Under the pieces are notes generated by a model, which did no database searches, was not told where the DNA came from, and saw only the letters and a list, made by a program, of their open reading frames with translations. Of a stretch of 64,000 nt of DNA, positions 37,780 through 60,636 are shown one piece after another. How positions within the stretch are numbered: position 1 is the stretch's first letter; the number at the start of each line of letters is the position of its first letter. This DNA comes from an uncultured Chloroflexia bacterium. Lineage in GTDB: Bacteria; Chloroflexota; Limnocylindria; Limnocylindrales; CSP1-4. The position numbers were made by a program, and so were the translations under genes. The stretch is taken from contig CAVWLQ010000003.1 in assembly GCA_963755995.1 (NCBI GenBank), positions 388,734 through 452,733 of the forward strand. The letters are read 5' to 3'.

Positions 37780-37888
37780 CCGAAGAGGAGCCCTCACCCC
37801 GCGCCTCCCCCGCGTCGGAGCACATGCCGCGTGCCAGCGGTACGCGGCTCGACAGGGAACAGGATACCCGGACGGCGGCTTGCCGCCA

Positions 37889-39936: not shown

Positions 39937-39943
39937 GTTGCGG

Positions 39944-41899: not shown

Positions 41900-41969
41900 C
41901 GATTCTCCCCTCGATCGCCGGCCGGCTGGCGACGAGTCTAGCGTGCCACCCGGCGCGATACCCGGAGGG

Positions 41970-41975
41970 TACACT
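41970..41975 (+). promoter_or_regulatory. putative -10 hexamer (TACACT), leaderless start of divergent dynamin gene
   Basis: TANNNT 7 nt upstream of ATG 41983, inside the 83-nt divergent intergenic region shared with the Hsp70 gene. Confidence 0.35.
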
Positions 41976-41982
41976 CGGCCGG

Positions 41983-43837: not shown

Positions 43838-44159
43838 GGCCAATCGGATGGCGGGGGAAGGACGATTCGGGGTGGAATCGTGGTCATGCCGTCTGCTACA
43901 GTCACGGCCTTGGCATCGTCTCAGGCGAGGGTGAGTCCAGGGACGGTCACCGGGAGAGTGGGGACCCGGCACGCGGCACGGATCGACGGGGGGAAGACCG
44001 ACGACGATCCGGACCAGAGGGTCGGGACAACGGGGCCGATCACGTTTCCACCCACCCTTCGACGGCGACCGCCCGGGACCACCCATCGGCGAGGCCGCAC
44101 CGTGTCGCGCCGCGGGCGAATGAGGGATCCGTCCCCCGTATGGACGTCAAACGGCTGGA

Positions 44160-44993
44160 GTGGTGGACTTGAAGCGAATCCTGATCATCCTCTCTGAGTT
44201 CGGCTACTGGGGCGAGGAGCTCGTCGGCCCCCTCGAGACCTTCGACGAAGCCGGCTACCAGATCGATTTCGCGACGCCCAAGGGCGGGCGACCGACTCCC
44301 TTGCCGCCGAGCATGGACCCGCAGTACATCGACCCGCCGCTCGGCAAGTCCGTGACGTCACAGGAGGTCGCGGACAAGGTCAAGGCGCTCGACGCCTCGC
44401 ATCGCTACGACAAGCCGATCGACATCTCCAGCTGGATCCCGGAGCGTCCGTACTACAGCTCGCCGACGCTGCTGCGCGACATGGAGGCGTACTACGCACG
44501 CCTTGACGAGGTCCAGAAGGAGATCGAGGAGAAGTACGACGCGATCCTGCTCGTCGGCGGCAGCGGCCCGATCGTCGACATCGCCAACAACGACCGGATC
44601 CACGCCCTGATCCTGCTCTTCCAGAAGCTCAACAAGCCGATCGGCGCCGAGTGCTACGGCGTGGCCGCGCTGGCCTTCGCCCGCGACCTCGACAACCGCG
44701 AGAGCATCATCACCGGCAAGCGCGTCACCGGCCACTGCAAGGAGTACGACTACAAGGACGGGACCGGCTTCATCGGGGTCATGTTCAACATGGGCCCGCC
44801 GCCGTATCCGCTCGAGTACATCCTCCGCGACGCGACCGCGCCCGAAGGCGAGTACATCGGGAACGTCGGCCATGCGACCTCGGTCATCGTCGACTACCCG
44901 TTCATCACCGGTCGCTCCACACCGGACTCGTACCTCACGGGCGAGAAGATGGTCGAGGTGCTCGAAGAGGGCCTGACCCGGTATGGCTGGTAG
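44160..44993 (+). CDS. DJ-1/PfpI-superfamily (class I glutamine amidotransferase-like, Hsp31-like) protein
   Basis: ILIILSEFGYWGEEL...AILLVGGSGP...KPIGAECYGVAAL (nucleophile-elbow Cys). GTG start; alternative starts at 44163 or 44169. Confidence 0.7.
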   Translation: MVDLKRILIILSEFGYWGEELVGPLETFDEAGYQIDFATPKGGRPTPLPPSMDPQYIDPPLGKSVTSQEVADKVKALDASHRYDKPIDISSWIPERPYYSSPTLLRDMEAYYARLDEVQKEIEEKYDAILLVGGSGPIVDIANNDRIHALILLFQKLNKPIGAECYGVAALAFARDLDNRESIITGKRVTGHCKEYDYKDGTGFIGVMFNMGPPPYPLEYILRDATAPEGEYIGNVGHATSVIVDYPFITGRSTPDSYLTGEKMVEVLEEGLTRYGW

Positions 44994-46743
44994 CTCCGTC
45001 AGTCCGGCGCTGGACGACGGGGTGGCCACGACGAGGACGGGGCGCTACGCGATCCTCGAGCAACTGCTGGCCGACGAGGTCGGCTACATCTTCGGCAACC
45101 CGGGGACCGTCGAGCAGGGCTTTTTGGACGCCCTCGGGAGCTATCCGGACCTGCCCTACATCCTGACCCTCCAGGAGACGATCGCCGTCGCCATCGGCGA
45201 CGGCTACGCCCGGGCGCGGCATCATCCGGCCGTCGTCCAGCTCCACAGCGGGGTCGGCCTCGGCAACGGCATCGGGATGCTCTACCAGGCCAAGCGCGGC
45301 GGGACGCCGCTCGTGGTCATCGCCGGCGAATCGGGCATCAAGTACGACGCGATGGACGCCCAGATGGCGGCCGACCTCGTGTCGATGGCGCGGCCGGTGA
45401 CCAAGTGGGCGACCCGCGTCGTCGACCCGGGCTCCGTCCTGCGGGTCCTCCGGCGAGCGATCAAGATCGCCGGCACGGCGCCGACCGGACCGGTCTTCGT
45501 GTGCCTGCCGGCGGACGTCCTCGACGCGCCCAACACCGAGGCCGTCATCAAGACCGCGATGCCGGCCACCCGGGTCGTCCCGGAGCCCGGCCTCGTCGCG
45601 GAGGCGGCGACGCTCCTGGCCGGCGCGGAGCATCCGCTGATCATCATGGGCGACGGCATCTCGATGTCCGGGGCCCAGGCCGAGCTCACCCGCGTCGCCG
45701 AGCTCCTCGGCGCCGAGGTCTGGGGGGCCAACTCGTCCGAGGTCAACATCGACGAGACGCACCCGCTGTTCCGGGGCAACCTCGGCCACATGTTCGGCCA
45801 CCACAGCGGGCCGCTCGTCGGCCCGGCCGACGCGGTGCTGATCGTCGGCACGTACGTCTTCCCGGAGGTCTTCCCGGCCCTGGCGGACGTCTTCTCGCCC
45901 GGGACCCGGGTCGTCCACGTCGATCTCGACGCCTACGAGATCGCCAAGAACTTCCCGGTCGACCTGGGCATCGTCGCCGACCCGAAGCTGACCCTGGCGG
46001 CGCTCGCGGTCGTCCTGGATCAGCAGCTGGCGCCGGCCGCCCGCGAGGCCGCCGGCCGGCGGATCGACGGCCGGCGGGCCGCTCGCGAACAGGCGGCCGC
46101 GGCGATGCGCGACGCGGACCTCGAGGCACGCCGGTCGGTCCCGCTCCACGCATCGGAGTTCATGGAGGCCCTGGCAGCCCGGCTGCCGGCCGACGCGATC
46201 GTCTTCGACGAGGCCCTGACGTTCTCGCCGGAGGTCACCCAGTACCTGCCGCCGCGCGTGCCCGGCTCGTTCTTCCAGACCCGGGGCGGGTCGCTCGGGG
46301 TCGGCATCCCGGGCGCGATCGGCGCCAAGCTGGCCCACCCCGACCGGACGGTCGTCGGGTTCACCGGCGACGGCGGCAGCATGTACACGATCCAGGCGCT
46401 GTGGACCGCGGCCCACCACCGGATCGGGGCCAAGTTCGTGATCCTCGACAACGGGGCGTACCAGCTCCTCCGGCTGAACATCCAGCAGTACTGGAAGGAC
46501 CTCGGTCTCCCGGAGAACCCGTTCCCCGCGTCGTTCGACCTGGGCGATCCGGACATCCGGTTCGACGTGCTGGCCGAGGCGATGGGCGTCGACGCCCTGC
46601 GCGTCGCGACGCGCGAGGAGATCGGCCCGGCGCTCGACGCCGCGCTCGCCGACGACCGCCCATTCCTGATCGATCTCGTCGTCAACAACGACGTCCGCAA
46701 CGACGTCGCCCAGGGCAAGCATCTCAAGGCCGGCCAGTCGTGA
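44983..46743 (+). CDS. thiamine-diphosphate enzyme, benzoylformate-decarboxylase/acetolactate-synthase-like
   Basis: YIFGNPGTVEQGFLDAL..., ...GVGLGNGIGMLYQAKRGGTPLVVIAGE, and the ThDP motif GDGGSMYTIQALWTAA...FVILDNGAY. The start could alternatively be GTG 45022. Confidence 0.85.
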   Translation: MAGSSVSPALDDGVATTRTGRYAILEQLLADEVGYIFGNPGTVEQGFLDALGSYPDLPYILTLQETIAVAIGDGYARARHHPAVVQLHSGVGLGNGIGMLYQAKRGGTPLVVIAGESGIKYDAMDAQMAADLVSMARPVTKWATRVVDPGSVLRVLRRAIKIAGTAPTGPVFVCLPADVLDAPNTEAVIKTAMPATRVVPEPGLVAEAATLLAGAEHPLIIMGDGISMSGAQAELTRVAELLGAEVWGANSSEVNIDETHPLFRGNLGHMFGHHSGPLVGPADAVLIVGTYVFPEVFPALADVFSPGTRVVHVDLDAYEIAKNFPVDLGIVADPKLTLAALAVVLDQQLAPAAREAAGRRIDGRRAAREQAAAAMRDADLEARRSVPLHASEFMEALAARLPADAIVFDEALTFSPEVTQYLPPRVPGSFFQTRGGSLGVGIPGAIGAKLAHPDRTVVGFTGDGGSMYTIQALWTAAHHRIGAKFVILDNGAYQLLRLNIQQYWKDLGLPENPFPASFDLGDPDIRFDVLAEAMGVDALRVATREEIGPALDAALADDRPFLIDLVVNNDVRNDVAQGKHLKAGQS

Positions 46744-46765
46744 GCCGGAGCAGGGGAGGATCGCG

Positions 46766-47200
46766 ATGACGGATCTCGACGAGTCGGAGGTCAAGGCGTT
46801 GGTCGACGCCTGGTACAAGGCGCTCGACGTGCACGCGCCGGTCGACCAGGTCGTGGCGATGGTCGCGGCGGACGGCCTCGAGTGCTACTGGCCGGAGGGT
46901 CCGACCTTCGGAGTGGACGAGTTCAAGGGCTGGTACGACCGGGTCACCCACACCTTCTTCGACGAAGTCCACACGATGAAGGAGCTGGAGATCACGCCCC
47001 GAGGCGACCAGGCTGACGTGAAGCTCGTCGTCAACTGGCAGGCCAAGGTCTGGAACCCGCCGGACGCGACCAGCAAGTGGCTCGGCATGGACGCCCGCCA
47101 GACGTGGGTCGTGGCGCGCGCCGCGGACGGCGGCCGGCCCGTCATCCAGAAGTACGTCGTCGACGGCATGGACCTGATGCCCGGCTCGTCGACGCTCTGA
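46766..47200 (+). CDS. NTF2-fold protein (ketosteroid-isomerase/SnoaL_2-like)
   Basis: 144 aa with an alpha+beta cone pattern (VKALVDAWYKALD...VVNWQAKVW...TWVVARAADGGRPVIQKYVVD). SD GGGGAGGA upstream. Confidence 0.55.
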   Translation: MTDLDESEVKALVDAWYKALDVHAPVDQVVAMVAADGLECYWPEGPTFGVDEFKGWYDRVTHTFFDEVHTMKELEITPRGDQADVKLVVNWQAKVWNPPDATSKWLGMDARQTWVVARAADGGRPVIQKYVVDGMDLMPGSSTL

Positions 47201-47202
47201 GC

Positions 47203-47241
47203 GGATCCGCGGCCGCACCCGCCACCACGGCGGCCGCATCC
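47203..47241 (+). other. intergenic hairpin built on two NotI-type GCGGCCGC palindromes
   Basis: GGATCCGCGGCCGC-(13 nt)-GGCGGCCGCATCC: an 8-9 bp GC stem plus a 4-bp extension after a 2-nt bulge, with no U-tract. It lies in the only long (131-nt) gap inside the operon. Confidence 0.3.
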
Positions 47242-47331
47242 GCCGCCTACGAAAGGGGGCTCGCCTGACTCGAGGACGCGCTATCACTCGGACCGCATCG
47301 GATCAGCTCAACGACGAACGGAGGGAATCCC

Positions 47332-47832
47332 GTGGCAACTGACGCAGCCGTCCACCCCGCGATGGCGGTCGTGGGCAAGATGTACGAGTGTTTCGGCAAG
47401 GGCGACATGGCGACCCTGAAGACCGACGTCTTCGCCCCGGACATCACCTGGGCCCTGCCGGGCCACCACCCGCTGTCGGGCGTCAAGAACGGCCCGGATG
47501 AGGTCATCGCGTTCTTCGCCGCCTTGATGCAGACCGGCATCAAGGTGGACAACGTCACCTTCGGCACGATGGGCGACGACCAGGTCGTCGAGAAGCACAC
47601 CGGGCACGGCATCCTGACCAACGGCGAAGAGATCATCTTCCCGACCTGCAGCCACTACACGATCAAGGACGGCAAGATCGCCAAGGTCCAGGTCTACACG
47701 GCGGACCAGCACGGCGTGGATCGCTATTTCTGGGCGATGTACGACCTCAAGCCGATCCCCGGCCGGCTCGACAACCACGACACGTCGAACCTGGACGATC
47801 CCAACGTCCCGCTCCGCACCGACAAGGCGTAG
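47332..47832 (+). CDS. NTF2-fold protein (SnoaL_2-like)
   Basis: VVGKMYECFGKGDMATLKTDVFAPDITWALPGHHPLSG...HYTIKDGKIAKVQVY. SD ACGGAGGGA upstream of the GTG. Confidence 0.6.
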   Translation: MATDAAVHPAMAVVGKMYECFGKGDMATLKTDVFAPDITWALPGHHPLSGVKNGPDEVIAFFAALMQTGIKVDNVTFGTMGDDQVVEKHTGHGILTNGEEIIFPTCSHYTIKDGKIAKVQVYTADQHGVDRYFWAMYDLKPIPGRLDNHDTSNLDDPNVPLRTDKA

Positions 47833-47835
47833 GCG

Positions 47836-48264
47836 ATGGCTGACATCACCGCCGATCGGGTCAAGAGCGCCTACAAGGCCCTCGCCACCGGCGATCGCAA
47901 CCTCATCGCGGAGTTCTGGGCGGAGGAGATGGTCTGGCAGGTCCCGGGCCACAACCACCTGTCCGGCTGGTACCACGGCCTCGACGAGTTCCTCGGGTTC
48001 ATGGGCCAGGTCGGCGCCCTGTCCGCCGGCAGCTTCAACATGGAGACGATCAGCGTCATCGTCGAAGCGGACTGGTCGGCGGACATCACCCGCAACCAGG
48101 GCAAGCGGGCGGACAGCGAGAAGAAGCTCGACATCGAGGTCGTCCACGTGCTCCGCTGGACCGACGGCAAGGTCGTCGCCGGCAAGGGCGCGATCTTCGG
48201 CGACGGGACGACCGAGTACGACCAGTTCTGGTCGCGTGCGCCGGTCGTCGGCGACACCCAGTAG
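47836..48264 (+). CDS. NTF2-fold protein (SnoaL_2-like), paralogue of the preceding gene
   Basis: VKSAYKALATGDRNLIAEFWAEEMVWQVPGHNHLSG...LRWTDGKVVAGKG. It has the same W-x-(L/V)PGH-x-x-LSG signature as 47332. Gap of 3 nt. Confidence 0.6.
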   Translation: MADITADRVKSAYKALATGDRNLIAEFWAEEMVWQVPGHNHLSGWYHGLDEFLGFMGQVGALSAGSFNMETISVIVEADWSADITRNQGKRADSEKKLDIEVVHVLRWTDGKVVAGKGAIFGDGTTEYDQFWSRAPVVGDTQ

Positions 48265-48302
48265 CTCGCCGGTCAGCGGCACAGCCCGACAGGAGCGCAA
48301 CG

Positions 48303-48665
48303 ATGCCGATCATCACGATCCAGTTCATCAAGGACGTCGTGGCCAACGACGAGCAGAAGCAGGAGCTGCTCGTGAAGATGACCGACACCTTCATCTCGGT
48401 GGTGGGTGAGGTCGCCCGGCCGTTCGTCTACTGCATCATCCAGGAGACCCCGCAGATGGAATGGTCCATCGGCGGCAAGGCCATGCCGGATCTCGCATTC
48501 CTGATCGGGCCGGAGTACACCGCCCAGAAGGACAAGTCGAACGAGATCATGAGCGCGTTCGTCGAGTCGTCCAAGGCAGACCACGACGCGGCCGGCGGCG
48601 ACCCGAACAAGGACCACCTCGCCGAGAAGATGTGGGCGGCGCCGCCGGCCCCGAAGACCGAATAG
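48303..48665 (+). CDS. 4-oxalocrotonate-tautomerase-family protein with about 55-aa C-terminal extension
   Basis: MPIITIQFIKD... (Pro1 after Met removal, beta-alpha-beta unit). SD AGGAGC upstream. Confidence 0.55.
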   Translation: MPIITIQFIKDVVANDEQKQELLVKMTDTFISVVGEVARPFVYCIIQETPQMEWSIGGKAMPDLAFLIGPEYTAQKDKSNEIMSAFVESSKADHDAAGGDPNKDHLAEKMWAAPPAPKTE

Positions 48666-48681
48666 GGGCCGGGAGGACCAG

Positions 48682-49158
48682 ATGCCAGACGCCGAGCACA
48701 CGTACACCGCCCAGGAGGAGGCCGCGATGGCCGTCATCCGCCGGTGGTGCGATGAGGGTTGGACGAAGGGCCATGTCGAGGTGGCGGACGAGATCATCCA
48801 CCCGAACTTCAAGGTCCACGGCGCGGGCGGCCAGGTCATCGAGCCCGGCATCGAGGGCCTGAAGCAGCTCGTCACCGCCTGGCGGACGGGGTTCCCGGAC
48901 GCCGTCCAGCGGGTCGACAAGATCATGGCCCTGGGCGACACCGTCGTCGTCCGGCTGACCTGGGAGGGCACCCACCTGGGCGAGTTCATGGGCACGCCGC
49001 CGACCGGCAAGAAGGTCAGCGTCGAGACCATCGGGATCGACCGCGTCGTCGACGGCAAGGTCGTCGAAGGCTGGGGCCAGCTCGACATGCTGGGTCTGCT
49101 GACGACGATCGGCGCCATGGTGCCGGCCGCTCCGGCGGCCGAGCCCGCCAAGAGTTGA
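48682..49158 (+). CDS. SnoaL-like ester cyclase family protein (single NTF2 domain)
   Basis: VIRRWCDEGWTKGHVEVADEII...EGTHLGEFMGTPPTGKKVSVETIGIDRVVDGKVVEGWGQLDMLGLLTTIG. Confidence 0.7.
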   Translation: MPDAEHTYTAQEEAAMAVIRRWCDEGWTKGHVEVADEIIHPNFKVHGAGGQVIEPGIEGLKQLVTAWRTGFPDAVQRVDKIMALGDTVVVRLTWEGTHLGEFMGTPPTGKKVSVETIGIDRVVDGKVVEGWGQLDMLGLLTTIGAMVPAAPAAEPAKS

Positions 49159-49222
49159 TCCCGGGCTAGGTACGGCTCCGGCCGGGTGCCCCGAGGGTCG
49201 CGCATTGGAAGGAAGGACGCTC

Positions 49223-50173
49223 ATGGCCTCGGAGATCTCTTCGCCCGGGGAGAAGAACAAGGCGACCTACCGTCGTTTCGTCGAGGAGGTCATCAACAAG
49301 GGAAACGTCGAGGTCATCCCGGAGTTGTACCAGGCTGACTACGTCGATCACAGCCGTCCGCCGGGGGCGCCCGAAGGTCTCGACGGGGTCCGCATGATCC
49401 CCAAGATGTTCCGTGGTGCCTTCCCCGACCTGCATTTCACGATCGAGCTGATGGTGGCCGAGGGCGACCTTGTCGCCACGTACGTCACCGGCCGAGGCAC
49501 CAATGACGGCCCATTCATGGGTCACCCGGCGACCGGCAGGAAGGCCCAATGGGCGTCGATGGGCTTCTTCCGCGTCGCGGACGGGAAGATCGCGGAGCAC
49601 TGGGGGTCCCCGGACCTCCTGACGCTGCTCACGCAGCTCGGCGCGATCCCGTCGCCCGGTGGCGCGGCGCCTCCGCCCCAGGCGGCGACACCGCCGCGGA
49701 AGGCGGAGGGCCGGATCGACCCCGAGGAGGGCAAGCGGATCCTCCGACAGTACGTGGAGGATGAGTTCAACCGGCACGACCTGAGCGGACTCGACGACAT
49801 CCTCGCCGACGGCTACGTCTATCGGGCGATGGGCATGGAGATCAAGGGCCTCGATGGCTACAAGGCCACCGTCGAGCCGCTGTTCGTGGCCTTCCCGGAC
49901 GTGAAGAACACGACCGAGGAGATCATCGCCGAGGACGACCTCGTCGCGACGCGATGGAGCGCCAAGGGCACGCATCTCGGCCCGTTCATGGGCATTCCCG
50001 CCACCGGCAAGGCGGTCCAGCTCACGGGGATGACGATCGAGCGAATCGCGGGCGGCAAGCGGCTCGAAGGCTGGGGCGTCCCCGACATGCTCGGTCTGAT
50101 GGGCCAGCTGGGTGCCGGACCTGGGGCAGCGGGTGGAGCCCCGCCCGGAGGCTCGCCGGACGCGCCGCATTGA
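49223..50173 (+). CDS. tandem double ester-cyclase (two NTF2 domains) protein
   Basis: Domain 1: ...YRRFVEEVINKGNVEV...GPFMGHPATGRKAQWASMGFFRVADGKIAEHWGSPDLLTLLTQLG. Domain 2: ...GPFMGIPATGKAVQLTGMTIERIAGGKRLEGWGVPDMLGLMGQLG. The ATG at 49223 has SD GGAAGGAAGGA; the track start at 49205 is less likely. Confidence 0.7.
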   Translation: MASEISSPGEKNKATYRRFVEEVINKGNVEVIPELYQADYVDHSRPPGAPEGLDGVRMIPKMFRGAFPDLHFTIELMVAEGDLVATYVTGRGTNDGPFMGHPATGRKAQWASMGFFRVADGKIAEHWGSPDLLTLLTQLGAIPSPGGAAPPPQAATPPRKAEGRIDPEEGKRILRQYVEDEFNRHDLSGLDDILADGYVYRAMGMEIKGLDGYKATVEPLFVAFPDVKNTTEEIIAEDDLVATRWSAKGTHLGPFMGIPATGKAVQLTGMTIERIAGGKRLEGWGVPDMLGLMGQLGAGPGAAGGAPPGGSPDAPH

Positions 50174-50219
50174 CGAACGCACCGCATCCGACCATGGCTG
50201 AGACCCAGAAGGAGTCCTG

Positions 50220-51107
50220 ATGTCGCTCGCAGAGGAACAGCAGAACAAGGAGATCGTCACGGCGTTCGTCAAGGCGACGAACAAGCTCGAGCTCGACAAG
50301 CTCGACGACATGGTCGTCGAGGACTACGTCGAGCACCAGCCGATCCCCGGTCAGCCGCCCGGCCGCGAAGGCCTGAAGTGGGCGTACAAGGTGTTCAACG
50401 AGCCGTTCCCCGACCTCGAGTTCGATTTCGCCGATGTCATCGCGGAGGGCGACCTCATCGTGGGGCGGGGGATCGGCGAAGCGGTCAACAAGGGCAGCTT
50501 CATGGGCATCCCGCCGACCAACAAGCCGGTCAAGTGGAGCGGCACGCGCCTGTTCCGGATGAAGGACGGCCGCCTCGTCGAGGGCTGGATCAACATCGAC
50601 ATGCTCGGGATGATGCAGCAGCTCGGCGTGGTGCCCGCGTCACCGCCCGGTCCACCGGCGCCGGCGACCCGGCACATCACCGGGGCGCCCTCGACGCGCG
50701 AGGCGAACCACGCGCTCATGGAGCGGTTCATCGACGAGGTCTGGAACAAGGGCAACCTCGCGGTCGCCGACGAGCTGTTCCATCCCGAGGCATCCAGCCC
50801 CAGCGCGCCGACCCTCCCGCTGGGCGCCGAGGGCGTCAAGTTCATCGTGAACATGATGCGCAACGCGTTCTCCGACTACTGGATGGAGATCACCCACATC
50901 GTGGCTGAGGACGACCGGGTCGCCGCCCGGTTCCGCCAGGGTGGCACGCACGACGGCGACCTGATGGGCATCGCTCCGACCGGCAAGAAGGTCGAGTGGA
51001 CCGAGATCGGCATCCTCCGGATCGCCGACGGCAAGGTCGTGGAGAGCTGGTACGACGTCGACATGCTCGGGCTGATGGGTCAGCTCGGCGTCGGTGGCCA
51101 GAGCTAG
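50220..51107 (+). CDS. tandem double ester-cyclase (two NTF2 domains) protein
   Basis: Domain 1: ...GSFMGIPPTNKPVKWSGTRLFRMKDGRLVEGWINIDMLGMMQQLG. Domain 2: ...GDLMGIAPTGKKVEWTEIGILRIADGKVVESWYDVDMLGLMGQLG. SD GAAGGAG upstream. Confidence 0.7.
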   Translation: MSLAEEQQNKEIVTAFVKATNKLELDKLDDMVVEDYVEHQPIPGQPPGREGLKWAYKVFNEPFPDLEFDFADVIAEGDLIVGRGIGEAVNKGSFMGIPPTNKPVKWSGTRLFRMKDGRLVEGWINIDMLGMMQQLGVVPASPPGPPAPATRHITGAPSTREANHALMERFIDEVWNKGNLAVADELFHPEASSPSAPTLPLGAEGVKFIVNMMRNAFSDYWMEITHIVAEDDRVAARFRQGGTHDGDLMGIAPTGKKVEWTEIGILRIADGKVVESWYDVDMLGLMGQLGVGGQS

Positions 51108-51120
51108 CGGCGGGCACGCG

Positions 51121-51501
51121 ATGTCCACCGCCGAGGTCATCGATCGCTACTACGAGACGGCCAATGCCGGCGACTGGGATGCCTGGTGCGACCTGTTCAC
51201 CGACGACCAGGTCATGGACGAGCAGCTGGCCGGCCATATCGAGAGCCTGGCCACGCTGCGGCCGATGATGGCCGGCATGGGCCGCGCCTATTCGAAGTTC
51301 CAGAATGTCCCGAAGCACATCGTCATCAACGGCGATGAGGCGGCGGTCGTGTCGCACATCTCCGCGGCCAACGCGGCGGGCGACCCGATCGAGGCGAACG
51401 TCATGAACTACTTCAAGCTCCGGGACGGCAAGATCGCCTACATGGCGAACTTCCACGACAGCGTGCCGTTCCGGCCCTTCCTCGACCAGAAGCTCGACTG
51501 A
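51121..51501 (+). CDS. NTF2-fold protein (SnoaL_2-like)
   Basis: MSTAEVIDRYYETANAGDWDAWCDLFTDDQVM...YFKLRDGKIAYMANFHD. The ATG at 51121 was chosen so the gene does not overlap the previous one. Confidence 0.6.
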   Translation: MSTAEVIDRYYETANAGDWDAWCDLFTDDQVMDEQLAGHIESLATLRPMMAGMGRAYSKFQNVPKHIVINGDEAAVVSHISAANAAGDPIEANVMNYFKLRDGKIAYMANFHDSVPFRPFLDQKLD

Positions 51502-51510
51502 GGGACGCAG

Positions 51511-53073
51511 GTGGCCGAGTTCGACTACATCGTCGTCGGGGCCGGCGCCGCCGGCTCGGTCGTCGCCAATCGCCTGACCGAGGACCCGGCCACGCGCGTC
51601 CTCCTGCTGGAGGCCGGCGGGCCGGAGGTGCCGCCCAACGTCCACGACGCGTCGATCTGGTACACGCTGCTGGGCTCCGACGTCGACTGGAAGTACTTCA
51701 GCGAGCCACAGGCCGGGCTCGATGGGCGCAAGACCTTCGAGCCACGGGGCAAGCTGCCCGGCGGGTCGAGCGACTTCTACATCATGATGCACATCCGCGG
51801 CCACACCTCGGACTACGACGGCTGGGCCGCCGACGGCGCGACCGGCTGGTCGTACCAGGACGTGCTGCCGTACTTCCAGAAGCTGGAGAACCAGGAGGAC
51901 ACCACCTCCCCGTGGGCCGGCCACGGCGGTCCGCTCCCGCTGACGAACGCCGGCAAGCACGACCCCAACCCGACGTCGCAGGCATTCATCGACGCCTGCC
52001 TCGAGCTGGGCTACCCCGCAACGGACGACTTCAACGGTCCGACCATGGAAGGCGCCGGCTGGCACCACATCAACGTGGTCGACGGCAAGCGCTTCGCCGC
52101 GTACCGGGCGTACCTCGAACCTGCCCTGCGCCGCCCGAACCTGACCTTCGAGACGGACGCGCTCGCCTCACGGCTGCTCATCGAGGACGGCCGGTGCACC
52201 GGCGTGGAGTACCTGAAAGGCAGCCGCCACCACCGCGCGCACGTGACCGACACGGGTCAGGTCATCGTCTCGGCCGGCGCCATCGAGTCGCCCAAGCTCC
52301 TGCTGCTGTCCGGCATCGGCGACCCCGACGAGCTGAAGGCCGTCGGCGTCGAGCCGCTGGTCGACCTGCCCGGCGTCGGCCGCAACTTCCACAACCACGT
52401 GCTGACAGGCGTCATCCACGAGTCGCCGCAGCCCGTGCCCGCCGGCCACCAGAACCTGTCGGAGAGCGCGCTCTTCCTGCGCTCCGATCCGGCCGAGACC
52501 GGGCCGGACCTGCAGATCGCGTTCGTCCACGTGCCGTTCAACATCATCGTCGGGCAGGGCCACCCGAACTCGATCAGCATCCTGCCGGGCCTCGTCCGGC
52601 CGAAGTCGCGCGGCACGGTCAAGCTGGCCAGCGACGACCCGACGGCCCATCCGCTGGTCGATCCCAACTACCTCGGCGAGGCGAGCGACATGGACAAGAT
52701 GGTCGAGGCGGTCAAGATCGCGCGCCGGATCTTCGCCACCAAGGCGTTCGCGCCCTGGACCGGAGCTGAGCTGATGCCGGCGGACGACCCCAAGACCGAT
52801 GACGAGCTGCGGACGTTCCTCCGCGCGACCGCCGACTCGTACCACCACCAGGCGGGCTCGTGCCGGATGGGGACCGACGACCTCGCGGTGGTCGATCCCA
52901 CGCTCCACGTGCGGGGCGTCGCCGGGCTGCGCGTCGCGGACGCGAGCGTCATGCCCGCGGTCCCCTCGGGCAACTGCCACGCTGGGATCCTGATGATCGC
53001 CGAGCGCCTCTCGGACTGGCTCAAGGCCGAAGCCGCCAGCGGCGCCGCCACGACCGCCGGATCGCAGGCATGA
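51511..53073 (+). CDS. GMC-family FAD oxidoreductase (choline/alcohol dehydrogenase-like)
   Basis: FDYIVVGAGAAGSVVANRLTEDP..VLLLEAGG. Also GGSSDFYIMMHIRG, and C-terminal ...YHHQAGSCRMG...LRVADASVMP. Confidence 0.9.
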   Translation: MAEFDYIVVGAGAAGSVVANRLTEDPATRVLLLEAGGPEVPPNVHDASIWYTLLGSDVDWKYFSEPQAGLDGRKTFEPRGKLPGGSSDFYIMMHIRGHTSDYDGWAADGATGWSYQDVLPYFQKLENQEDTTSPWAGHGGPLPLTNAGKHDPNPTSQAFIDACLELGYPATDDFNGPTMEGAGWHHINVVDGKRFAAYRAYLEPALRRPNLTFETDALASRLLIEDGRCTGVEYLKGSRHHRAHVTDTGQVIVSAGAIESPKLLLLSGIGDPDELKAVGVEPLVDLPGVGRNFHNHVLTGVIHESPQPVPAGHQNLSESALFLRSDPAETGPDLQIAFVHVPFNIIVGQGHPNSISILPGLVRPKSRGTVKLASDDPTAHPLVDPNYLGEASDMDKMVEAVKIARRIFATKAFAPWTGAELMPADDPKTDDELRTFLRATADSYHHQAGSCRMGTDDLAVVDPTLHVRGVAGLRVADASVMPAVPSGNCHAGILMIAERLSDWLKAEAASGAATTAGSQA

Positions 53074-53672
53074 GCCCCGCCGCCAAGAAGGTCGGGATCC
53101 TCATGGAGAGCGACTTCTACGAGGACGAGATCTTCTACTACAAGCACCGGTTCCCGGAGGAGGGGATCGAGATCCACTGGCTGACGCGGCTGTGGGGCCA
53201 GGAGCGGATCACCTTCCACGGCCACGAGTACCGGGCGCCGTTCGAGGTCAGTGAGTCGTTCGAGGGGATGTCCGACGCCGAGCTCCGGTCGTACGCGGCG
53301 ATCATCGTCCCGTCGGCCATCGTGTCGGATCGGCTGCGCTACACCGACGACGTCACGAAGCTCCCACCGGCGACGGAGTTCCTCGCCCGGGCCTTCGCCG
53401 AGACGAACATCGTCAAGGGCATCATCTGCCACGGCATGTGGCTGGTGGCACCGATGCCGGAGCTCATCCGCGGCCGGCCCGTCGTGGCCCACAACAATCT
53501 CCATGGTGACGTGGTCAACATGGGTGCCATCTACACGGATCAGGACGTCGTGATCGACGGGGACCTGATCACGGGACGGACAGGCGGGCACTGTCACCTG
53601 TTCGCGCGGGCGATCATCGACGCGATCGCCGCCAAGGACGGTCCCGCGACGTCGGGGTCGGCGCGCGGCTGA
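53070..53672 (+). CDS. DJ-1/PfpI-family protein
   Basis: ATGA overlap with the GMC gene. KKVGILMESDFYEDE...AIIVPS...KGIICHGMWLV (Cys-His elbow)...DGDLITGR. Confidence 0.75.
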   Translation: MSPAAKKVGILMESDFYEDEIFYYKHRFPEEGIEIHWLTRLWGQERITFHGHEYRAPFEVSESFEGMSDAELRSYAAIIVPSAIVSDRLRYTDDVTKLPPATEFLARAFAETNIVKGIICHGMWLVAPMPELIRGRPVVAHNNLHGDVVNMGAIYTDQDVVIDGDLITGRTGGHCHLFARAIIDAIAAKDGPATSGSARG

Positions 53673-53706
53673 CCGGTCCCGCAACCAGAGAGAGGAGACG
53701 CGTTCG

Positions 53707-54138
53707 TTGGCGACCCTGGAGTTCCATCACATGGGCCTGGTCTGTGCGGACATGGCCGCCACGGAGCGCTTCTACAGCCGCTGGTTCGGGTTCGAGCGGA
53801 CGCGCGTCGTCCCGCTCGGCGAGGGCGACCAGATCATCTTCCTGAGGTCCGGGCCGCTCTACCTCGAGCTGTTCAACGCCAAGCTCCCGAGCCCGCTCGC
53901 TGCCCCGACCGGCACCGGCCCGGACCATCCGGGCTGGCGCCACATCGCGTTCAAGGTCGACGACGTCGACGCCAAGCTGGCCGAGATGGGCGCCGATGCC
54001 CACATCACGGCCGGACCGATGGACTTCGACGCGTTCATCCCCGGCTGGCGCTCGGCCTGGGTGGCCGACCCGGACGGCAACATCGTGGAGATCAGCCAGG
54101 GCTACGTCGACGAGACGGACCCGCCGCCGGCACCCTGA
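53707..54138 (+). CDS. VOC (glyoxalase I/extradiol dioxygenase-fold) protein
   Basis: FHHMGLVCADMAATERFYSRWFGF...GWRHIAFKVDDVDA...WVADPDGNIVEI. TTG start with SD GAGAGGAGA. Confidence 0.75.
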   Translation: MATLEFHHMGLVCADMAATERFYSRWFGFERTRVVPLGEGDQIIFLRSGPLYLELFNAKLPSPLAAPTGTGPDHPGWRHIAFKVDDVDAKLAEMGADAHITAGPMDFDAFIPGWRSAWVADPDGNIVEISQGYVDETDPPPAP

Positions 54139-54160
54139 CGACCGGACGCGATCGAATCGA

Positions 54161-54186
54161 AAGGCCCGCCGGGACCGGCGGGCCTT
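54161..54186. terminator. intrinsic-terminator-like hairpin between convergent operons
   Basis: AAGGCCCGCCG-GGAC-CGGCGGGCCTT forms an 11-bp perfect stem followed by TCTCGTT. It lies 23 nt after the stop at 54138. Confidence 0.6.
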
Positions 54187-54200
54187 TCTCGTTGCACGGT

Positions 54201-54224
54201 CGTCCGGGCGGCGTCGCCCGGACG
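54201..54224. terminator. second perfect hairpin, adjacent to the stop of the minus-strand AGE-STAS gene
   Basis: CGTCCGGGCG-GCGT-CGCCCGGACG forms a 10-bp perfect stem. It lies 5 nt from the stop at 54229 and has no clear U-tract. Confidence 0.5.
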
Positions 54225-54228
54225 CCGG

Positions 54229-56454
54229 TCAGTCCGGCTTCTTGCCCAGACCGTCCGGATCGCGGAACGGGTCGTAGCTCTCGACGACGTTGATGTCCTC
54301 CTGGTCCGGATCGGCCTTCCGGAGCGCCTCGGCCACGGCCTTGTTCGGGCCGACCGCGTAGATGTCGGCCCGGTCGGAGATGTCCATCCGCTGACGGGCG
54401 AACAGCAGCACCCGGATCCCGACGTTGGCGATCGAGTCGAGGTCCTTCAGGTAGAGCACGAGCCGGGCGGGCTTCTTGGCCAGGACGTTCTCGACCTCGG
54501 TCTGGAAGATGCCGAAGGTGCTCGTGTCGAGCTTGCCGGTGAGCGTCATCTCGGCGACGTCGCCGACGATCTTGGTCGTGACATCGAACGGGTCGACGGT
54601 CGGCACGACCTGGACCCGGATCTTGTGCCGCTTCTTGTCGTCGGGGACGTGGACGGTCAGGCCGTCGGCGTCGAAGTCGGCGTACGGCTCGCCGTCCACC
54701 GCGACCTCGCCGATCCGGATGCTGCCCGGCGGCAGGATGTCCGGCGAGACCCGCAGGATGTTGTCCTTGAGGTTGCCCGGGATCGGGCTGAACCACAGGT
54801 CCATCGGTTCCTTGGTGATGAGCAGGTTGGTGTAGACGGTGGCCAGGTAGGCCAGCTCGAACGAGTGGTAGCCGGCCATCGAGTGGCTGCCCTTCTGCCG
54901 CTCCGTGCCGAGCAGGTACGGGATGCCGTTGGACAGGACGTTGAAGTAGACCGAGCCCTCGTCGTAGTCGAAGAACCAGGCGTTGTAGAAGGCAGCCGCC
55001 TCGCGCCCGAGCCGGAGCGCCTCGTCGTTGCCGGTCGAGCCGGCCATGATCTGGTAGGCGAGGATGGCCTGCTCCTGCTGCCACCAGGCCTTGCGGTCGT
55101 GCCAGGTGAAGCGGGTCGCCTCCTGGCCGGGCTCGCGGACGCGCTCGACCACGTCGTACCAGCCGCCCCGCTGCTCGTCGCTGCCGACCGCGGGCATCGT
55201 CTCGTTGATCTTGTTGGCCAGCGCGAGATAGCGGTTGGCCGGGCGCATGTGGTGGATGCGCATCAGGTTCCAGGCGATCTTCAGGTTGTGCCCGACGACT
55301 GCGCGGTTCTGCTGCCAGCCCCAGGTCACGTCGTGGCTCCAGTCCTCGTGGAACCGCTCCTGGACGAACGGGCTGTTCTCGTCGTCGGGGAAGCGCTGCT
55401 CGATCGTGTCCGCGATCGACACGAGCATGTCCGCGTACTTGTCCTCGCCGGTGGCCAGCCACGTGTTGATCAGGTAGGCCGGGATGTGGTCGCCGACGGA
55501 GTTCCAGTTCTTGCGGGCGCGGTTGCGACCCAGCTCGTCGCTCTTGCCGTCGAACGAGATCGGGTCGAGGTGCGACCAGTAGCCGCCGTAGGTCGGGTCG
55601 TAGAAGAACCGCTCGAACAGCGAGATCGTCTGGTCGATGTCCTCGCGGATGCGCTTGTCGCCGGTGATCCGGTAGACCTGGCCGGGCCCGACCAGGGCGT
55701 AGATCTGCTCGTAGGCCGGGATCGCCTGGTAGTCGTCACCGAACTCCGAGGCGAGGATCTTCTTCTCGTTCGGCTCGCTGATCTCGATGGCGTGATACCA
55801 GTAGGTCACGCCCTCGCCGCTGTCGACATTGCGCAGGTGCTCGCGGAGGTACTCGACGCCACCCTCGGCCGCCTCGAGGAAGCGGTCCTCGCCGGTCATG
55901 TGGTACGCCGTGGACAGGCCGTAGATGAGCCGGGAGATGGTGTCCGTCTCCTGGCGGTCGCCGACCTTGTTGCCGGTCATGTCGATGCCGACCCGGTACT
56001 CGCGCCAGTTCGGCACGCCCTCGGGGAACTGGGCACGCATGTAGAAGTCGGCCATCTGCCAGATCTGCTTGACCCACCAGTCCGGCTTCTCGAACACGTA
56101 GTCCTGCGCCCGCGCGCCGGGGAAGGTGAGGGCCTTGGCCTCGTAGACGTGCGTGCCGCCTTCGGGGTAGAAGACGCCGTACACGAACATGTAGCGACCG
56201 GGCACGAGCATGTCGCGCATCTGGCCGGTCGCGTCGGCATACGGCTCGCCGAGGTTGCGGACGAGCTGGGCGTTGGTCGTGTCGGTCAGCTTGACCGTGA
56301 ACTCGCGGCCGTCGCTGGTCGTGATCGTGAAGGTGTCCGCGTTCCGGTCGTAGCGCTTGACGTAGCCCGCGATCGTGTCGGAGAACGAGAACGCCATCGC
56401 GTCCTTCGCCGCAGCCTTCGAGCCGGCCTTCGCCGGTGCTGATTTCACCGCCAT
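54229..56454 (-). CDS. N-terminal beta domain + AGE-like (alpha/alpha)6-barrel + C-terminal STAS domain fusion protein (741 aa)
   Basis: True start is MAVKSAPAK at 56454, with a GGAGG 7 nt upstream. Barrel signatures: YDPTYGGYWSHLD, VVGHNLKIAWNLMR, RGGWYDVV, KAWWQQEQAILAYQI. STAS-like tail: MTLTGKLDTSTFGIFQTEVENVLAKKPARLVLYLKDLDSIANVGIRVLLFARQ. The track ORF 54229..58272 is an out-of-frame read-through over glgX. Confidence 0.65.
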   Translation of the reverse strand: MAVKSAPAKAGSKAAAKDAMAFSFSDTIAGYVKRYDRNADTFTITTSDGREFTVKLTDTTNAQLVRNLGEPYADATGQMRDMLVPGRYMFVYGVFYPEGGTHVYEAKALTFPGARAQDYVFEKPDWWVKQIWQMADFYMRAQFPEGVPNWREYRVGIDMTGNKVGDRQETDTISRLIYGLSTAYHMTGEDRFLEAAEGGVEYLREHLRNVDSGEGVTYWYHAIEISEPNEKKILASEFGDDYQAIPAYEQIYALVGPGQVYRITGDKRIREDIDQTISLFERFFYDPTYGGYWSHLDPISFDGKSDELGRNRARKNWNSVGDHIPAYLINTWLATGEDKYADMLVSIADTIEQRFPDDENSPFVQERFHEDWSHDVTWGWQQNRAVVGHNLKIAWNLMRIHHMRPANRYLALANKINETMPAVGSDEQRGGWYDVVERVREPGQEATRFTWHDRKAWWQQEQAILAYQIMAGSTGNDEALRLGREAAAFYNAWFFDYDEGSVYFNVLSNGIPYLLGTERQKGSHSMAGYHSFELAYLATVYTNLLITKEPMDLWFSPIPGNLKDNILRVSPDILPPGSIRIGEVAVDGEPYADFDADGLTVHVPDDKKRHKIRVQVVPTVDPFDVTTKIVGDVAEMTLTGKLDTSTFGIFQTEVENVLAKKPARLVLYLKDLDSIANVGIRVLLFARQRMDISDRADIYAVGPNKAVAEALRKADPDQEDINVVESYDPFRDPDGLGKKPD

Positions 56455-56498
56455 TGCTATCCTCCTCGACAGTCCCTGCTGGACGCGGTCCCCCGCGG

Positions 56499-58639
<2,141 letters not shown>

Positions 58640-58643
<4 letters not shown>

Positions 58644-59549
58644 GCCCGGTCGCCCGAGGCGATCGGCGGGTCCAGCAGCACCAGGTTCTCCTTGGCCTTC
58701 TTCGTGTCGAGCGCCACCATGGCGCGGCCGTTGCGGGTGAGCGCCAAGCCTTCGGGCTTGCCGTCGAGCAACGGCAGCTCCCAGACCTCGTCGGCGCGGG
58801 CCACCGGATCGCCGACGACGAGCTCGCCGAGCCGGGCGATCGACTGTGACTTGTCGCTCAGCAGGTAGAGGTGGCGGTCCGGTCCGACCTCCAGGTCGCT
58901 GAAGTCCTCGCAGACGGCCGCCAGCTTGACCGACGGGTTCCAGACCGCGAGCGGCACGAAGACGTGATCGCCGTCGTCGGATCGGCCACCGCGCACCGCC
59001 CTGGAGTGCGGAGGTCGGCCCGAAGCCGGACGGCTCGTCGCCCGCCGGTCCGAACTCGACGAAGGCCGCGGGGTCCTTCTCCTTCGCGATCAGGAGGTGC
59101 CCGTTCTGCATGAAAGCCGCACCTTCACCCTGCGAGCTCTCCGCGTCGACCCATGAGTCGTGGAGCGGGTGCCCCTCGGGGATCTCGAGCGCGATCCGGG
59201 TGGCCACGGTGCGCGCCGCCCAGTCGAGCAGCTCGACCCGCGGCGGTGACTCCTGGAGGATGAGGATCCGGCCGGCACCATCGGCGCACACGGCCTCCAC
59301 CTGCGGATCGTCCCGCGGGATCAGCGACCCCTGCACGTCGGCCAGGTCGACGGTCTGCCAGACGTAGGCGCCGGCATCGTCATCCGGCAGCTCCACCCAG
59401 GCCGCGATCGAGGTCCGATCGCCAAACGCCACCATCGCCATGTCGCCGCCGGCCTCGCGCCGAAGGCAGACCCCGGACACTTCCTGGAGCGGCACATCTT
59501 CCGTTCGAAGGACCGAGAGTGTCGTCTCCTGGTCGCGTCCCTTGGCCAA
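58640..59549 (-). pseudogene. hypothetical beta-propeller-like protein (SdiA-regulated/YjiK-like?, tentative), one apparent frameshift near 58985-59000
   Basis: TTG start at 59549 preceded by GGGGGAGGGGGA. The N-part (...VSGVCLRREAGGDMAMVAFGDRT...EAVCADGAGRILILQESPP...) is in the frame of ORF 56499..59750. The C-part (DDGDHVFVPLAVWNP...LYLLSDKSQSIARL...KPEGLALTRNGRAMVALD) is in ORF 58640..58996. Confidence 0.4.
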
Positions 59550-59688: not shown

Positions 59689-59694
59689 TAGATT
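59689..59694 (+). promoter_or_regulatory. putative -10 hexamer (TAGATT), leaderless start
   Basis: TANNNT 6 nt upstream of ATG 59701. Confidence 0.4.
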
Positions 59695-59700
59695 CCGCCC

Positions 59701-60618: not shown

Positions 60619-60636
60619 CCGGCACAGGACACGCAC

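Follow-up and report, generated by a model that had tools for sequence, protein, structure and literature searches.

Among described systems, the closest to the subject of this report are benzoylformate decarboxylase (BFD; MdlC of the mandelate pathway), the glyoxalase systems (DJ-1/Hsp31 glyoxalase III, the PfpI/YhbO deglycases and glyoxalase I), the SnoaL/AknH/DnrD cyclases with Lsd19 and MonB, RsbV/RsbW/RsbU partner switching and, in logic only, certain keto-sugar routes of fungi and algae. The subject itself is an operon of 13 genes, here called g1 to g13, at positions 44160/44169-54138 (+ strand) of a 64-kb stretch of DNA (the window) from an uncultured Chloroflexia bacterium (contig CAVWLQ010000003.1), together with two convergent neighbours that encode the glycogen debranching enzyme GlgX and AGE-STAS, a sugar 2-epimerase/isomerase-like protein of the AGE superfamily that ends in a STAS domain. 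With BFD, the thiamine diphosphate (ThDP) enzyme encoded by g2 shares the three-domain architecture, Glu28, the cofactor-activating Glu47, His70 and the Mg/ThDP motif, but it lacks mandelate racemase, mandelate dehydrogenase and benzaldehyde dehydrogenase neighbours and is paired instead with a ThiJ-like protein. The likeness to glyoxalase systems lies in the Cys-His of g12, the Cys of g1 and the putative VOC metal site of g13, and the metallo-beta-lactamase (MBL) fold of glyoxalase II is also present in some versions of the cluster; the differences are that all the specific equivalog cutoffs are failed and that g1 has Cys-Tyr, not Cys-His. We know of no glyoxalase system that is an operon with a ThDP enzyme, NTF2-fold proteins, GlgX and AGE-STAS. 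The alpha+beta-cone NTF2 fold is common to the cluster and the SnoaL group, with PF07366 scores of 117-241 bits, and Lsd19 too is a tandem NTF2 protein; in contrast to SnoaL, AknH and DnrD, there is no polyketide synthase (PKS) context, and five domains carry an E-x-W / PxTGK motif instead. Partner switching is brought to mind by STAS being fused to, or encoded beside, AGE, and by the trio of standalone STAS protein, HATPase_c_2 kinase and response regulator (RR)-SpoIIE phosphatase that is frequent beside other versions, but there is no linked sigma factor and the STAS partner is a sugar-isomerase-like enzyme. The fungal and algal keto-sugar and pyrone routes include pyranose 2-oxidase with aldos-2-ulose dehydratase (AUDH), and the anhydrofructose (AF) pathway with ascopyrone tautomerase. 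What is alike is that alpha-glucan or glucose meets flavin (GMC) oxidation and then a dehydratase or isomerase and a tautomerase; the cluster differs in having no homologue of the GH31 glucan lyase, AUDH or AF dehydratase. Full-text literature searches found nothing on this cluster, a matching pathway or the AGE-STAS protein, and the original prediction, that no characterised pathway has this composition, still holds, no matching paper or cluster having come to light. The families themselves are all known. What appears undescribed is their conserved combination, its tie to enzymes of glycogen, a sugar isomerase joined to STAS, and NTF2 proteins fused from several domains.

The closest genomes are metagenome-assembled genomes (MAGs) of uncultured Chloroflexota (Chloroflexia, Limnocylindrales); an actinomycete origin, which the GC of 72% might suggest, is rejected on this ground. 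In three other Chloroflexota genomes (L001-L003; such labels denote the loci compared) all 13 genes are present in identical order at 72-94% identity, so the conserved synteny that the original prediction suggested looking for is there. These three also share the convergent AGE-STAS and GlgX downstream, and the boundaries first drawn were too narrow, the convergent pair at 54,229-58,616 being part of the conserved set. How much of this persists at greater distance? The neighbourhood survey took in loci with ThDP-enzyme homologues and 80 metagenomic loci gathered via an alignment of g12 orthologues, and co-occurrence was counted in the 23 loci in which the sequence flanking the g12 orthologue is long enough. 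There g12 is accompanied by the ThDP enzyme in 22, g3 in 20, the VOC protein and AGE in 19 each, GlgX and the ThiJ-like protein in 18 each, the GMC oxidoreductase in 15 and any PF07366 domain in 12. The composition centred on NTF2 proteins and a tautomerase that had first drawn attention to the locus turns out to be largely a lineage-variable accessory, g4, g5 and the tautomerase (g6) occurring in 4 of the 23. Order and orientation of the recurrent partners vary between loci; the sub-orders ThiJ-like-ThDP-g3 and DJ-1-VOC hold strictly from phylum to phylum. The core that is widely conserved consists of the ThiJ-like protein, the ThDP enzyme, g3, the PfpI-type DJ-1 protein and the VOC protein, usually with the GMC oxidoreductase, and the window holds the maximal version, made up of module A (g1, g2, g3 and g10-g13), module B (g4-g9) and module C (GlgX and AGE-STAS).

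Within module A, g1 (44169-44993, +) encodes a ThiJ/Hsp31-like member of the DJ-1 superfamily (Pfam ThiJ_like PF17124, 67.8 bits) with orthologues 57-72% identical across eight phyla. Its nucleophile elbow keeps the Cys, as Cys-Tyr (AECYG vs AICHG in the alignment with PDB 4p5p), and with 26.8 bits it does not reach the cutoff, 365, of the HchA glyoxalase III equivalog. Its partner g2 (44983-46743, +; Pfam TPP_enzyme_N, M and C) is 33% identical to the BFD of P. putida, and both PDB and NCBIfam rank BFD first among its matches. Is it then a benzoylformate decarboxylase? In the alignment to BFD, whose sequence was checked against 1bfd, the residues named above and the motif (GDG..DN) are retained, but Ser26 is replaced by Thr, His281 by Val and Gln282 by Phe, and the score against the BFD equivalog NF005485, 327.2 bits, does not reach the cutoff of 493; the catalytic residues (Ser26 and His281) and the failed curated cutoff rule out canonical BFD. 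H281V and Q282F are among the substitutions of 'glycolaldehyde synthase', an engineered BFD variant that condenses formaldehyde, and the Val-Phe of g2 at these places may hint at small-aldehyde carboligation. The third gene, g3 (46766-47200, +), encodes an NTF2-fold, dehydratase-like protein for which Pfam gives a marginal 26 bits to SnoaL_4; its AlphaFold2 (AF2) model has a pLDDT of 93.9 and in Foldseek a TM of ~0.78 to NTF2-type dehydratases and isomerases. Its family is small, with 358 members, and essentially confined to the context of this cluster.

The remaining genes of module A lie at the distal end of the operon. Another NTF2 protein, of the SnoaL_2 type, is encoded by g10 (51121-51501, +; Pfam 65.6 bits), a core member in many versions, with orthologues 56-67% identical in Ktedonobacteraceae, Deinococcus, L011, L014 and L103. 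The GMC flavin oxidoreductase, g11 (51511-53073, +), scores 162.9 and 135.5 bits to Pfam GMC_oxred_N and GMC_oxred_C; its translation holds the dinucleotide motif VVGAGAAG (GxGxxG) and the His motifs YHHQAGSCRMG and GNCHAG, in PDB it comes closest to choline, alcohol and chloramphenicol oxidases and to pyridoxine 4-oxidase, and against the characterised GMC subfamilies in NCBIfam (BetA, MftG and cholesterol oxidase) it is below all cutoffs. The PfpI-type DJ-1 protein g12 (53070-53672, +; Pfam 55.5 bits) has a Cys-His elbow and is the cluster's most conserved member, with a mean column identity of 83% across classes, ICHG retained in 85 of 87 orthologues, and at least 505 metagenomic relatives; against the PfpI deglycase equivalog it has 46.3 bits, short of the cutoff of 330. 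Last comes g13 (53707-54138, +), a putative VOC or glyoxalase-I-like metalloprotein (Pfam Glyoxalase, 51.8 bits), in which the positions His7/Glu/His/Glu line up, in the alignment, with the metal ligands of 3l7t, and which is below the cutoff of the YaeR-type equivalog.

Module C stands on the opposite strand. AGE-STAS (54229-56454, -) has 741 amino acids, with an N-terminal beta domain and the STAS domain at its C-terminus (Pfam GlcNAc_2-epim, 67 bits; STAS, 28.6 bits, cutoff 22.6). Its AF2 model (pLDDT 79.9) matches 3wkf, 8h1l, 3gt5 and 5x32 in Foldseek (E = 1e-12 to 1e-14, TMt 0.73-0.79), the top structural matches being cellobiose and glucose 2-epimerases, mannose isomerase and YihS, and the (alpha/alpha)6 barrel of AGE holds many invariant His and Arg residues. 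That the AGE-like domain might be a glycoside hydrolase (GH76/GH127) was considered and rejected, such structural matches being far weaker than those to the 2-epimerases and isomerases. Manual alignment of the fused STAS domain (window 54229-54600) with RsbV and SpoIIAA puts Asn at the phospho-Ser position (..DSIANVG..), and since Asn replaces Ser this domain may not be phosphorylatable; in the standalone STAS proteins of other loci the Ser is retained (..MSSAG..). GlgX (56499-58616, -; Pfam CBM_48 and Alpha-amylase) scores 727.7 bits to TIGR02100, above the cutoff of 640.9, and is the sole gene here to pass a specific NCBIfam equivalog cutoff. The two are convergent to the operon in the window and in L001-L003; elsewhere the order is AGE-STAS-GlgX, on the same strand, in L011, Deinococcus, Runella and Streptomyces, and GlgX-AGE in L012, L014, L103 and Gemmobacter. 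On chromosomes of Nostocales an orthologous GlgX (63%) and AGE-STAS (60%) stand beside SnoaL, tandem SnoaL, DJ-1, aldo-keto reductase (AKR) and alcohol dehydrogenase (ADH) genes that are not orthologous to those of the window, so that the same set of folds was recruited to the GlgX/AGE-STAS pair independently. Following GlgX and AGE-STAS, a response-regulator/thioredoxin-reductase-like fusion is encoded in Nostocales (L095 12503-15585; L097 12406-15470) and in the Chloroflexota-type L014 (15569-16896), and next in both Nostocales loci is a cyclic-nucleotide (cNMP)-binding HATPase protein, a second kind of regulatory neighbour beside the partner-switching trio.

The optional module B is where NTF2 domains have multiplied. 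Its first two genes, g4 (47332-47832, +; Pfam 53.9 bits) and g5 (47836-48264, +; 49.7 bits), encode SnoaL_2 NTF2 proteins, and orthologues of g4 are limited to the expanded versions (L001-L003, L011, L015, L060, L069 and L103). Then comes g6 (48303-48665, +), of the 4-oxalocrotonate tautomerase (4-OT) family (Pfam Tautomerase 24.3 bits, cutoff 22), which begins MPIITIQ, and so has Pro1, and carries a 60-residue C-terminal extension; five of five orthologues begin MPI and keep Pro1, and the NCBIfam DmpI and 4-OT equivalogs are not reached (31-38 bits, cutoffs 57-86). A single PF07366 ('ester cyclase') NTF2 domain makes up g7 (48682-49158, +; Pfam SnoaL 116.8 bits), whose best PDB match is 8ysb, a 'predicted ester cyclase'. 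Both g8 (49223-50173, +; two SnoaL stretches, 241 bits) and g9 (50220-51107, +; two SnoaL stretches, 218 bits) are tandem PF07366 fusions, with domains g8a and g8b, and g9a and g9b; an exact-sequence lookup of g9 gave no match. The five PF07366 domains of the window all conserve the E-x-W / PxTGK motif. With a mutual identity of only 32-44% they are ancient paralogues, each maintained in its own right, and not recent duplicates; g3, g4, g5 and g10 are unrelated to each other. Are the PF07366 domains canonical SnoaL cyclases? The acid/base residues of SnoaL, which we take to be Gln105, His107, His119 and Asp121 (numbering after Sultana et al. 2004), correspond in g7 to Thr, Gly, Gly and Gly (offset 11 from the 1sjw match), and g7, g8 and g9 have 48.6-59.5 bits to the NCBIfam SnoaL_meth_ester family NF033407, whose cutoff is 200. 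The catalytic positions of g7 and scores so far below the cyclase cutoff rule this out. With these genes the count of nine NTF2 domains in the original prediction is seen to be right, Pfam placing all nine above its gathering score and AF2 and Foldseek supporting g3 as well, and its other fold calls (the ThDP enzyme, tautomerase, GMC oxidoreductase, two DJ-1/PfpI proteins and VOC protein) were all recovered by Pfam.

Other versions lack module B, or have it detached or fused. L103 has it as a separate operon, divergent from the core (L103 1650-5278, -), and there a 765-amino-acid protein has five tandem PF07366 domains, four of them one-to-one orthologous to g7, g8a, g9a and g9b at 52-63% identity (domain 3 is 63% identical to g8a, and domains 4 and 5 correspond to g9a, at 52%, and g9b, at 56%). 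A 263-amino-acid protein of the same locus joins Tautomerase to SnoaL_2 and shares 56% identity with g6 and as much with g5. Because of these domain fusions the proteins of module B probably work as a physical assembly. L103 also has, at 2-800, a second, partial copy of g4/g5/g6. In L001, ~1 kb extra between the orthologues of g12 and g13 (14463-15483) includes one more PF07366-like segment, so that even near relatives differ in copy number.

The 13 open reading frames (ORFs) are intact and co-directional, and they form one operon. Third-position GC (GC3) is 0.87-0.97 in all 13, within sequence of 72% GC, and marks them as coding frames; with the ORF calls it bears out the 13 same-strand ORFs, spaced at -11 to +131 nt, of the original prediction. 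From g1 to g13 the intergenic gaps are -11, 22, 131, 3, 38, 16, 64, 46, 13, 9, -4 and 34 nt, so that reading frames overlap at g1/g2 (by 11 nt) and g11/g12 (by 4 nt). Shine-Dalgarno-like motifs, earlier ascribed to most of the genes, are present 5' of 10 of the 13 starts. Going by alignment with orthologues, the start of g1 is most likely the TTG at 44169 (MKRI...), and those of g8 and g10 are probably the ATGs at 49223 and 51121. The predicted non-coding leader 5' of g1 is there too (43838-44168, +; 322 nt to 44159, 331 nt with the TTG start). No ORF inside it shows the GC3 of coding sequence, it is unconserved in the relatives L001-L003, Rfam has zero matches from 43.5 to 60 kb with the leader included, and a sigma-70-like promoter scan of it, uninformative for this phylum, gave no match. 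A riboswitch or leader RNA was rejected on the Rfam null and because the leader is unconserved among relatives. At the other end, the two predicted GC-rich hairpins (54161-54186 and 54201-54224, strandless, by direct reading of the sequence) are real: the 90-nt gap between the convergent g13 and AGE-STAS folds at -62.2 kcal/mol (z = -5.2), with an A-run and a T-run flanking the first hairpin, and the double hairpin between convergent genes is probably a bidirectional terminator.

The cluster is not a peculiarity of Chloroflexota. It is present in at least eight phyla at 40-75% protein identity, and protein searches of a plasmid collection show it to be plasmid-borne in cultured Deinococcus, Runella, Streptomyces, Gemmobacter and Nostoc, with 40-70% identity to the window proteins over a host GC of 0.41-0.69; further carriers, which bring the phyla to eight, are Ktedonobacteraceae, a 'Bipolaricaulia' MAG and a contig labelled Dormibacterota. 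In Deinococcus sp. KNUC1210 (L098, NZ_CP092194) the genes are those for the ThiJ-like protein, ThDP enzyme, g3, NTF2, GMC, DJ-1, VOC, AGE, STAS, GlgX, STAS, SpoIIE and ParA. Runella rosea HYN0085 (L099, NZ_CP030852) has glycogen synthase, ThiJ-like, ThDP, GMC, many ester cyclases, DJ-1, VOC, AGE, STAS, GlgX, an anti-sigma antagonist and a kinase, and Streptomyces sp. NBC_01014 (L100, plasmid NZ_CP108686) has ThiJ-like, ThDP, DJ-1, AGE, STAS, GlgX, STAS, an anti-sigma factor, SpoIIE, ParA, GlgE-like and GlgB; six further Streptomyces plasmids had hits to g12 and g1, gene order being read in NBC_01014 only. Gemmobacter aquarius (L101) has ThiJ-like, ThDP, GlgX, AGE and DJ-1, and Nostoc sp. C052 (L102, NZ_CP040274) has MalQ, DJ-1, ThiJ-like, ThDP, g3, NTF2s, VOC, MIP, glucose 1-dehydrogenase, glucosidase, GlgX and AGE. 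Beside the cluster there are in this way alpha-glucan genes for glycogen synthase in Runella, for GlgE-like protein and GlgB in Streptomyces, and for MalQ, glucosidase and glucose 1-dehydrogenase in Nostoc C052. Horizontal transfer of the cluster is well supported, because of this distribution over eight phyla and plasmids and not because of composition.

What, then, does composition say? The original prediction took a dip in GC, counted by hand, as a possible mark of horizontal acquisition. The dip is real but smaller than that count suggested, coding GC being 0.680 in the block vs 0.724 in 17 flanking genes, and it runs on to ~58.6 kb across the convergent AGE-STAS and GlgX, which have the same signature of low GC1/GC2 and high GC3. 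It lies wholly in codon positions 1 and 2 (less Ala and Arg; more Lys, Asn, Ile, Phe, Tyr and Met). GC3 is 0.939 in the block vs 0.906 in the flanks, and the synonymous-codon distance between block and flanks, 0.036, is that found from one half of the flanks to the other, 0.037. Since GC3 and synonymous codon use match the host, the dip is one of amino-acid composition, and recent foreign DNA, as judged by codon usage, is ruled out on the same grounds. Composition delimits a unit of ~14.5 kb without sign of recent foreign origin; of the acquisition once proposed, the spread over phyla and plasmids stands and the foreign codon signature does not. A second contrast, between an intact block and frameshifted surroundings, fared likewise in part. 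The 13 genes are intact, there is a +1 frameshift at ~43,480 in the upstream dynamin-like gene relative to L001, and a gene at 58640-59460 (-), 5' of GlgX and likewise on the minus strand, looks broken by a frameshift, neither half having a Pfam hit. But L001, the closest relative, has frameshifts within its own g2, g9 and GlgX, which shows that being intact is no general trait of the lineage. Homopolymer runs of five or more G or C are at 0.60/kb in the block vs 1.03/kb outside.

As to function, the likeliest reading, tentatively held, is regulated cytoplasmic processing of reactive carbonyls whose source is the alpha-glucan or sugar pool of the cell itself, with its steps and substrate conjectural. 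The enzyme families present act on 2-oxoaldehydes, 2-oxoacids, alcohols and aldehydes, and enolisable ketones, and active-site features are kept in Cys-His of g12, Pro1 of g6, Glu47 and His70 of g2 and, by alignment, the metal ligands of g13. The setting would be a regulated, probably stress-triggered, mobilisation of glycogen, and candidate substrates would be 2-oxoaldehydes, alpha-dicarbonyls and 2-oxoacids, e.g., glucosone, 3-deoxyglucosone and methylglyoxal. GlgX would free oligosaccharides, the reducing-end sugar of which could be isomerised by AGE via an ene-diol; oxidation would fall to the GMC enzyme, elsewhere perhaps to a molybdenum (Mo)-hydroxylase, glucose 1-dehydrogenase, AKR or ADH. 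The NTF2 proteins and the tautomerase might then carry out enolisation, isomerisation or dehydration, and the ThDP enzyme either decarboxylation of a 2-oxoacid or cleavage or ligation of an alpha-hydroxyketone. Finally the two DJ-1-type proteins and the VOC protein may convert 2-oxoaldehydes to 2-hydroxyacids, the outcome being detoxification or salvage of dicarbonyls, or oxidative conversion of the freed sugar.

Several points weigh against this proposal. No orthology to characterised enzymes was found, all the specific NCBIfam equivalogs failing except GlgX, and the families of BFD, GMC, 4-OT and Mo-hydroxylase are also typical of aromatic and heteroaromatic catabolism. The linkage to GlgX could mean co-regulation and not a shared pathway. 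GMC, VOC, GlgX and AGE are each absent from a few versions, and searches with g3, g10 and g13 gave nothing in Streptomyces and Gemmobacter; given these gaps the minimal set is small, namely ThiJ-like, ThDP, DJ-1, AGE, STAS and GlgX. The 64-kb window encodes no partner-switching kinase or phosphatase; the earlier statement that there is no regulator is nonetheless incomplete, as the AGE neighbour has its STAS domain and other versions have STAS, RsbW-like and SpoIIE genes.

A rival reading, close to the original prediction, takes the cluster for a dedicated module that breaks down or detoxifies an aromatic, heteroaromatic or poly-carbonyl molecule from outside the cell, the glycogen genes being mere neighbours. 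BFD is after all the nearest relative of g2; g11 is akin to aryl-alcohol, hydroxymethylfurfural, chloramphenicol and pyridoxine oxidases; 4-OT is typical of meta-cleavage pathways, and carriage on plasmids fits catabolic islands. CoxSLM-type Mo-hydroxylases, typical of attack on N-heteroaromatics, are embedded in the cluster in at least 12 other loci, though the Mo-hydroxylase is nearest to CoxL form II and glyceraldehyde dehydrogenase, and a transporter of the major facilitator superfamily flanks the cluster in L014 and L103, though the loci compared have neither a transporter nor a ring-cleavage gene conserved among them. Some 35 long loci lack any ring-hydroxylating or ring-cleaving dioxygenase or CoA ligase, and also a conserved transporter or conserved substrate-responsive regulator; g2 is without the His281 of BFD and below its equivalog cutoff, and the linkage of GlgX and AGE-STAS survives rearrangement across eight phyla. 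Because the alpha-glucan link is constant and a conserved transporter or ring-cleavage enzyme is wanting, an endogenous sugar-derived substrate is likelier than an exogenous aromatic one, and the exogenous route is judged unlikely; what stands of it is a conserved, uncharacterised carbonyl/enol operon.

Need there be a pathway at all? Independent general-stress enzymes might simply be expressed with glycogen mobilisation under partner switching, as a co-regulated stress regulon. DJ-1/PfpI and VOC proteins are classic general-stress proteins (sigma-B regulons), gene content differs between versions, STAS, RsbW-like and SpoIIE genes adjoin, and a MinD/ParA gene is nearby in two phyla. Set against this are the overlapping reading frames of g1/g2 and g11/g12, the ThiJ-like-ThDP-g3 and DJ-1-VOC sub-orders kept strictly across phyla, the domain fusions of module B and a g3 drawn from a small family essentially confined to this context. 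Overlaps, fixed sub-orders, fusions and the specificity of g3 therefore speak for functional coupling beyond co-expression, and a regulon of unconnected enzymes seems improbable.

The carbonyl-processing proposal could also be carried further, to an undescribed, mobile route from stored alpha-glucan under partner-switching control, in which sugar released and isomerised by GlgX and AGE would give 2-oxoaldehydes or keto-sugars for the ThiJ-like/ThDP pair, the DJ-1 and VOC proteins and, in the expanded forms, an NTF2 'assembly line' of five domains with the tautomerase, for enolisation, dehydration and C-C cleavage; whether this would amount to a new non-phosphorylative chain-shortening pathway or to synthesis of a stress protectant, the extension is a doubtful one. 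The weakest of the alternatives is that the cluster makes or tailors a sugar-derived small molecule (a stress protectant, pigment, antibiotic or modified sugar) with carboligation by the ThDP enzyme and cyclisation or isomerisation by the NTF2 proteins, for which it can be said that NTF2 proteins of the PF07366, SnoaL, IdmH, TsrD and AclR types serve natural-product cyclisation or hydroxylation, that acetolactate synthase (ALS)/BFD-family enzymes such as YerE and ScyA are able to ligate carbon units, that NDP-sugar synthase or nucleotidyltransferase genes adjoin the Streptomyces and Gemmobacter versions and that the presence of five distinct, conserved NTF2 paralogues hints at steps taken in a set order, but which is quite unlikely given that there is no PKS in the window flanks or related loci and no nonribosomal peptide synthetase, terpene or other scaffold synthase or exporter in any locus, that g7 lacks the SnoaL catalytic residues, that SnoaL_meth_ester scores stay at 48-60 bits against a cutoff of 200, and that the NTF2-rich module is absent from most versions. 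Anti-phage defence was rejected, as the PADLOC profiles had no hits among 10 proteins. A link to the lti2/OrrA osmotic regulon of Anabaena was likewise dropped, lti2 being all0875 and no connection to the cluster being demonstrable.

Other genes of the window deserve mention. At 31234-36159 (+), with 10 kb between it and the block downstream, there is a CoxSLM-type Mo-hydroxylase operon with a MoCF-like gene (Pfam Fer2/Fer2_2, Ald_Xan_dh_C/MoCoBD and FAD_binding_5). With the cluster-embedded Mo-hydroxylases its subunits share 46-61% identity, and they have the low GC1/GC2 as well; the large subunit comes nearest to form II CoxL and glyceraldehyde dehydrogenase. By its likeness to the embedded enzymes the operon is possibly a displaced member of the cluster. 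Among the cluster-embedded Mo-hydroxylases, one large subunit has an N-terminal FHA domain, and the [2Fe-2S] small subunit either carries a fused SnoaL_2 NTF2 domain or follows a separately encoded one (the loci of these variants, FHA and small-subunit NTF2, are listed as L036 3476-6433, L088 3330-4142 and L010 11780-12118). Just past GlgX, at 59692-63147 (+), are genes of Mo-hydroxylase maturation (MoxR/MadB-like AAA, VWA_CoxE and XdhC), and the block at 44-59 kb thus lies between a Mo-hydroxylase operon and maturation genes. A divergent gene of the GH13 alpha-amylase family at 36232-37962 (-; Pfam 37 bits, no close named family) is a further alpha-glucan-type enzyme. Between it and the operon, two dynamin-like GTPase genes flank an Hsp70/MreB-like gene (38452-43837, the downstream GTPase gene at 41983-43837), an arrangement syntenic in the closest relative only. 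The window closes, at 63216-64000 (+), on the start of an FAD-dependent aromatic-type monooxygenase (MTEHAVVIAGGGPTG...) that continues past its end. In other versions MBL-fold proteins accompany several loci, and AKR, ADH or NmrA-type reductases some.

Since the cluster is carried by cultured, genetically tractable Streptomyces, Deinococcus, Nostoc and Runella, the question is directly testable. If the functional link is real, this would be a widespread metabolic or stress module, present in eight phyla and on plasmids of soil, freshwater and symbiotic bacteria. It would tie the mobilisation of glycogen to the handling of reactive carbonyls, a connection undescribed in bacteria, with the unusual arrangement of a sugar isomerase fused to STAS, and it would provide the first physiological context for the large 'orphan' families of PF07366 ester cyclases, ThiJ_like proteins and BFD-like ThDP enzymes.

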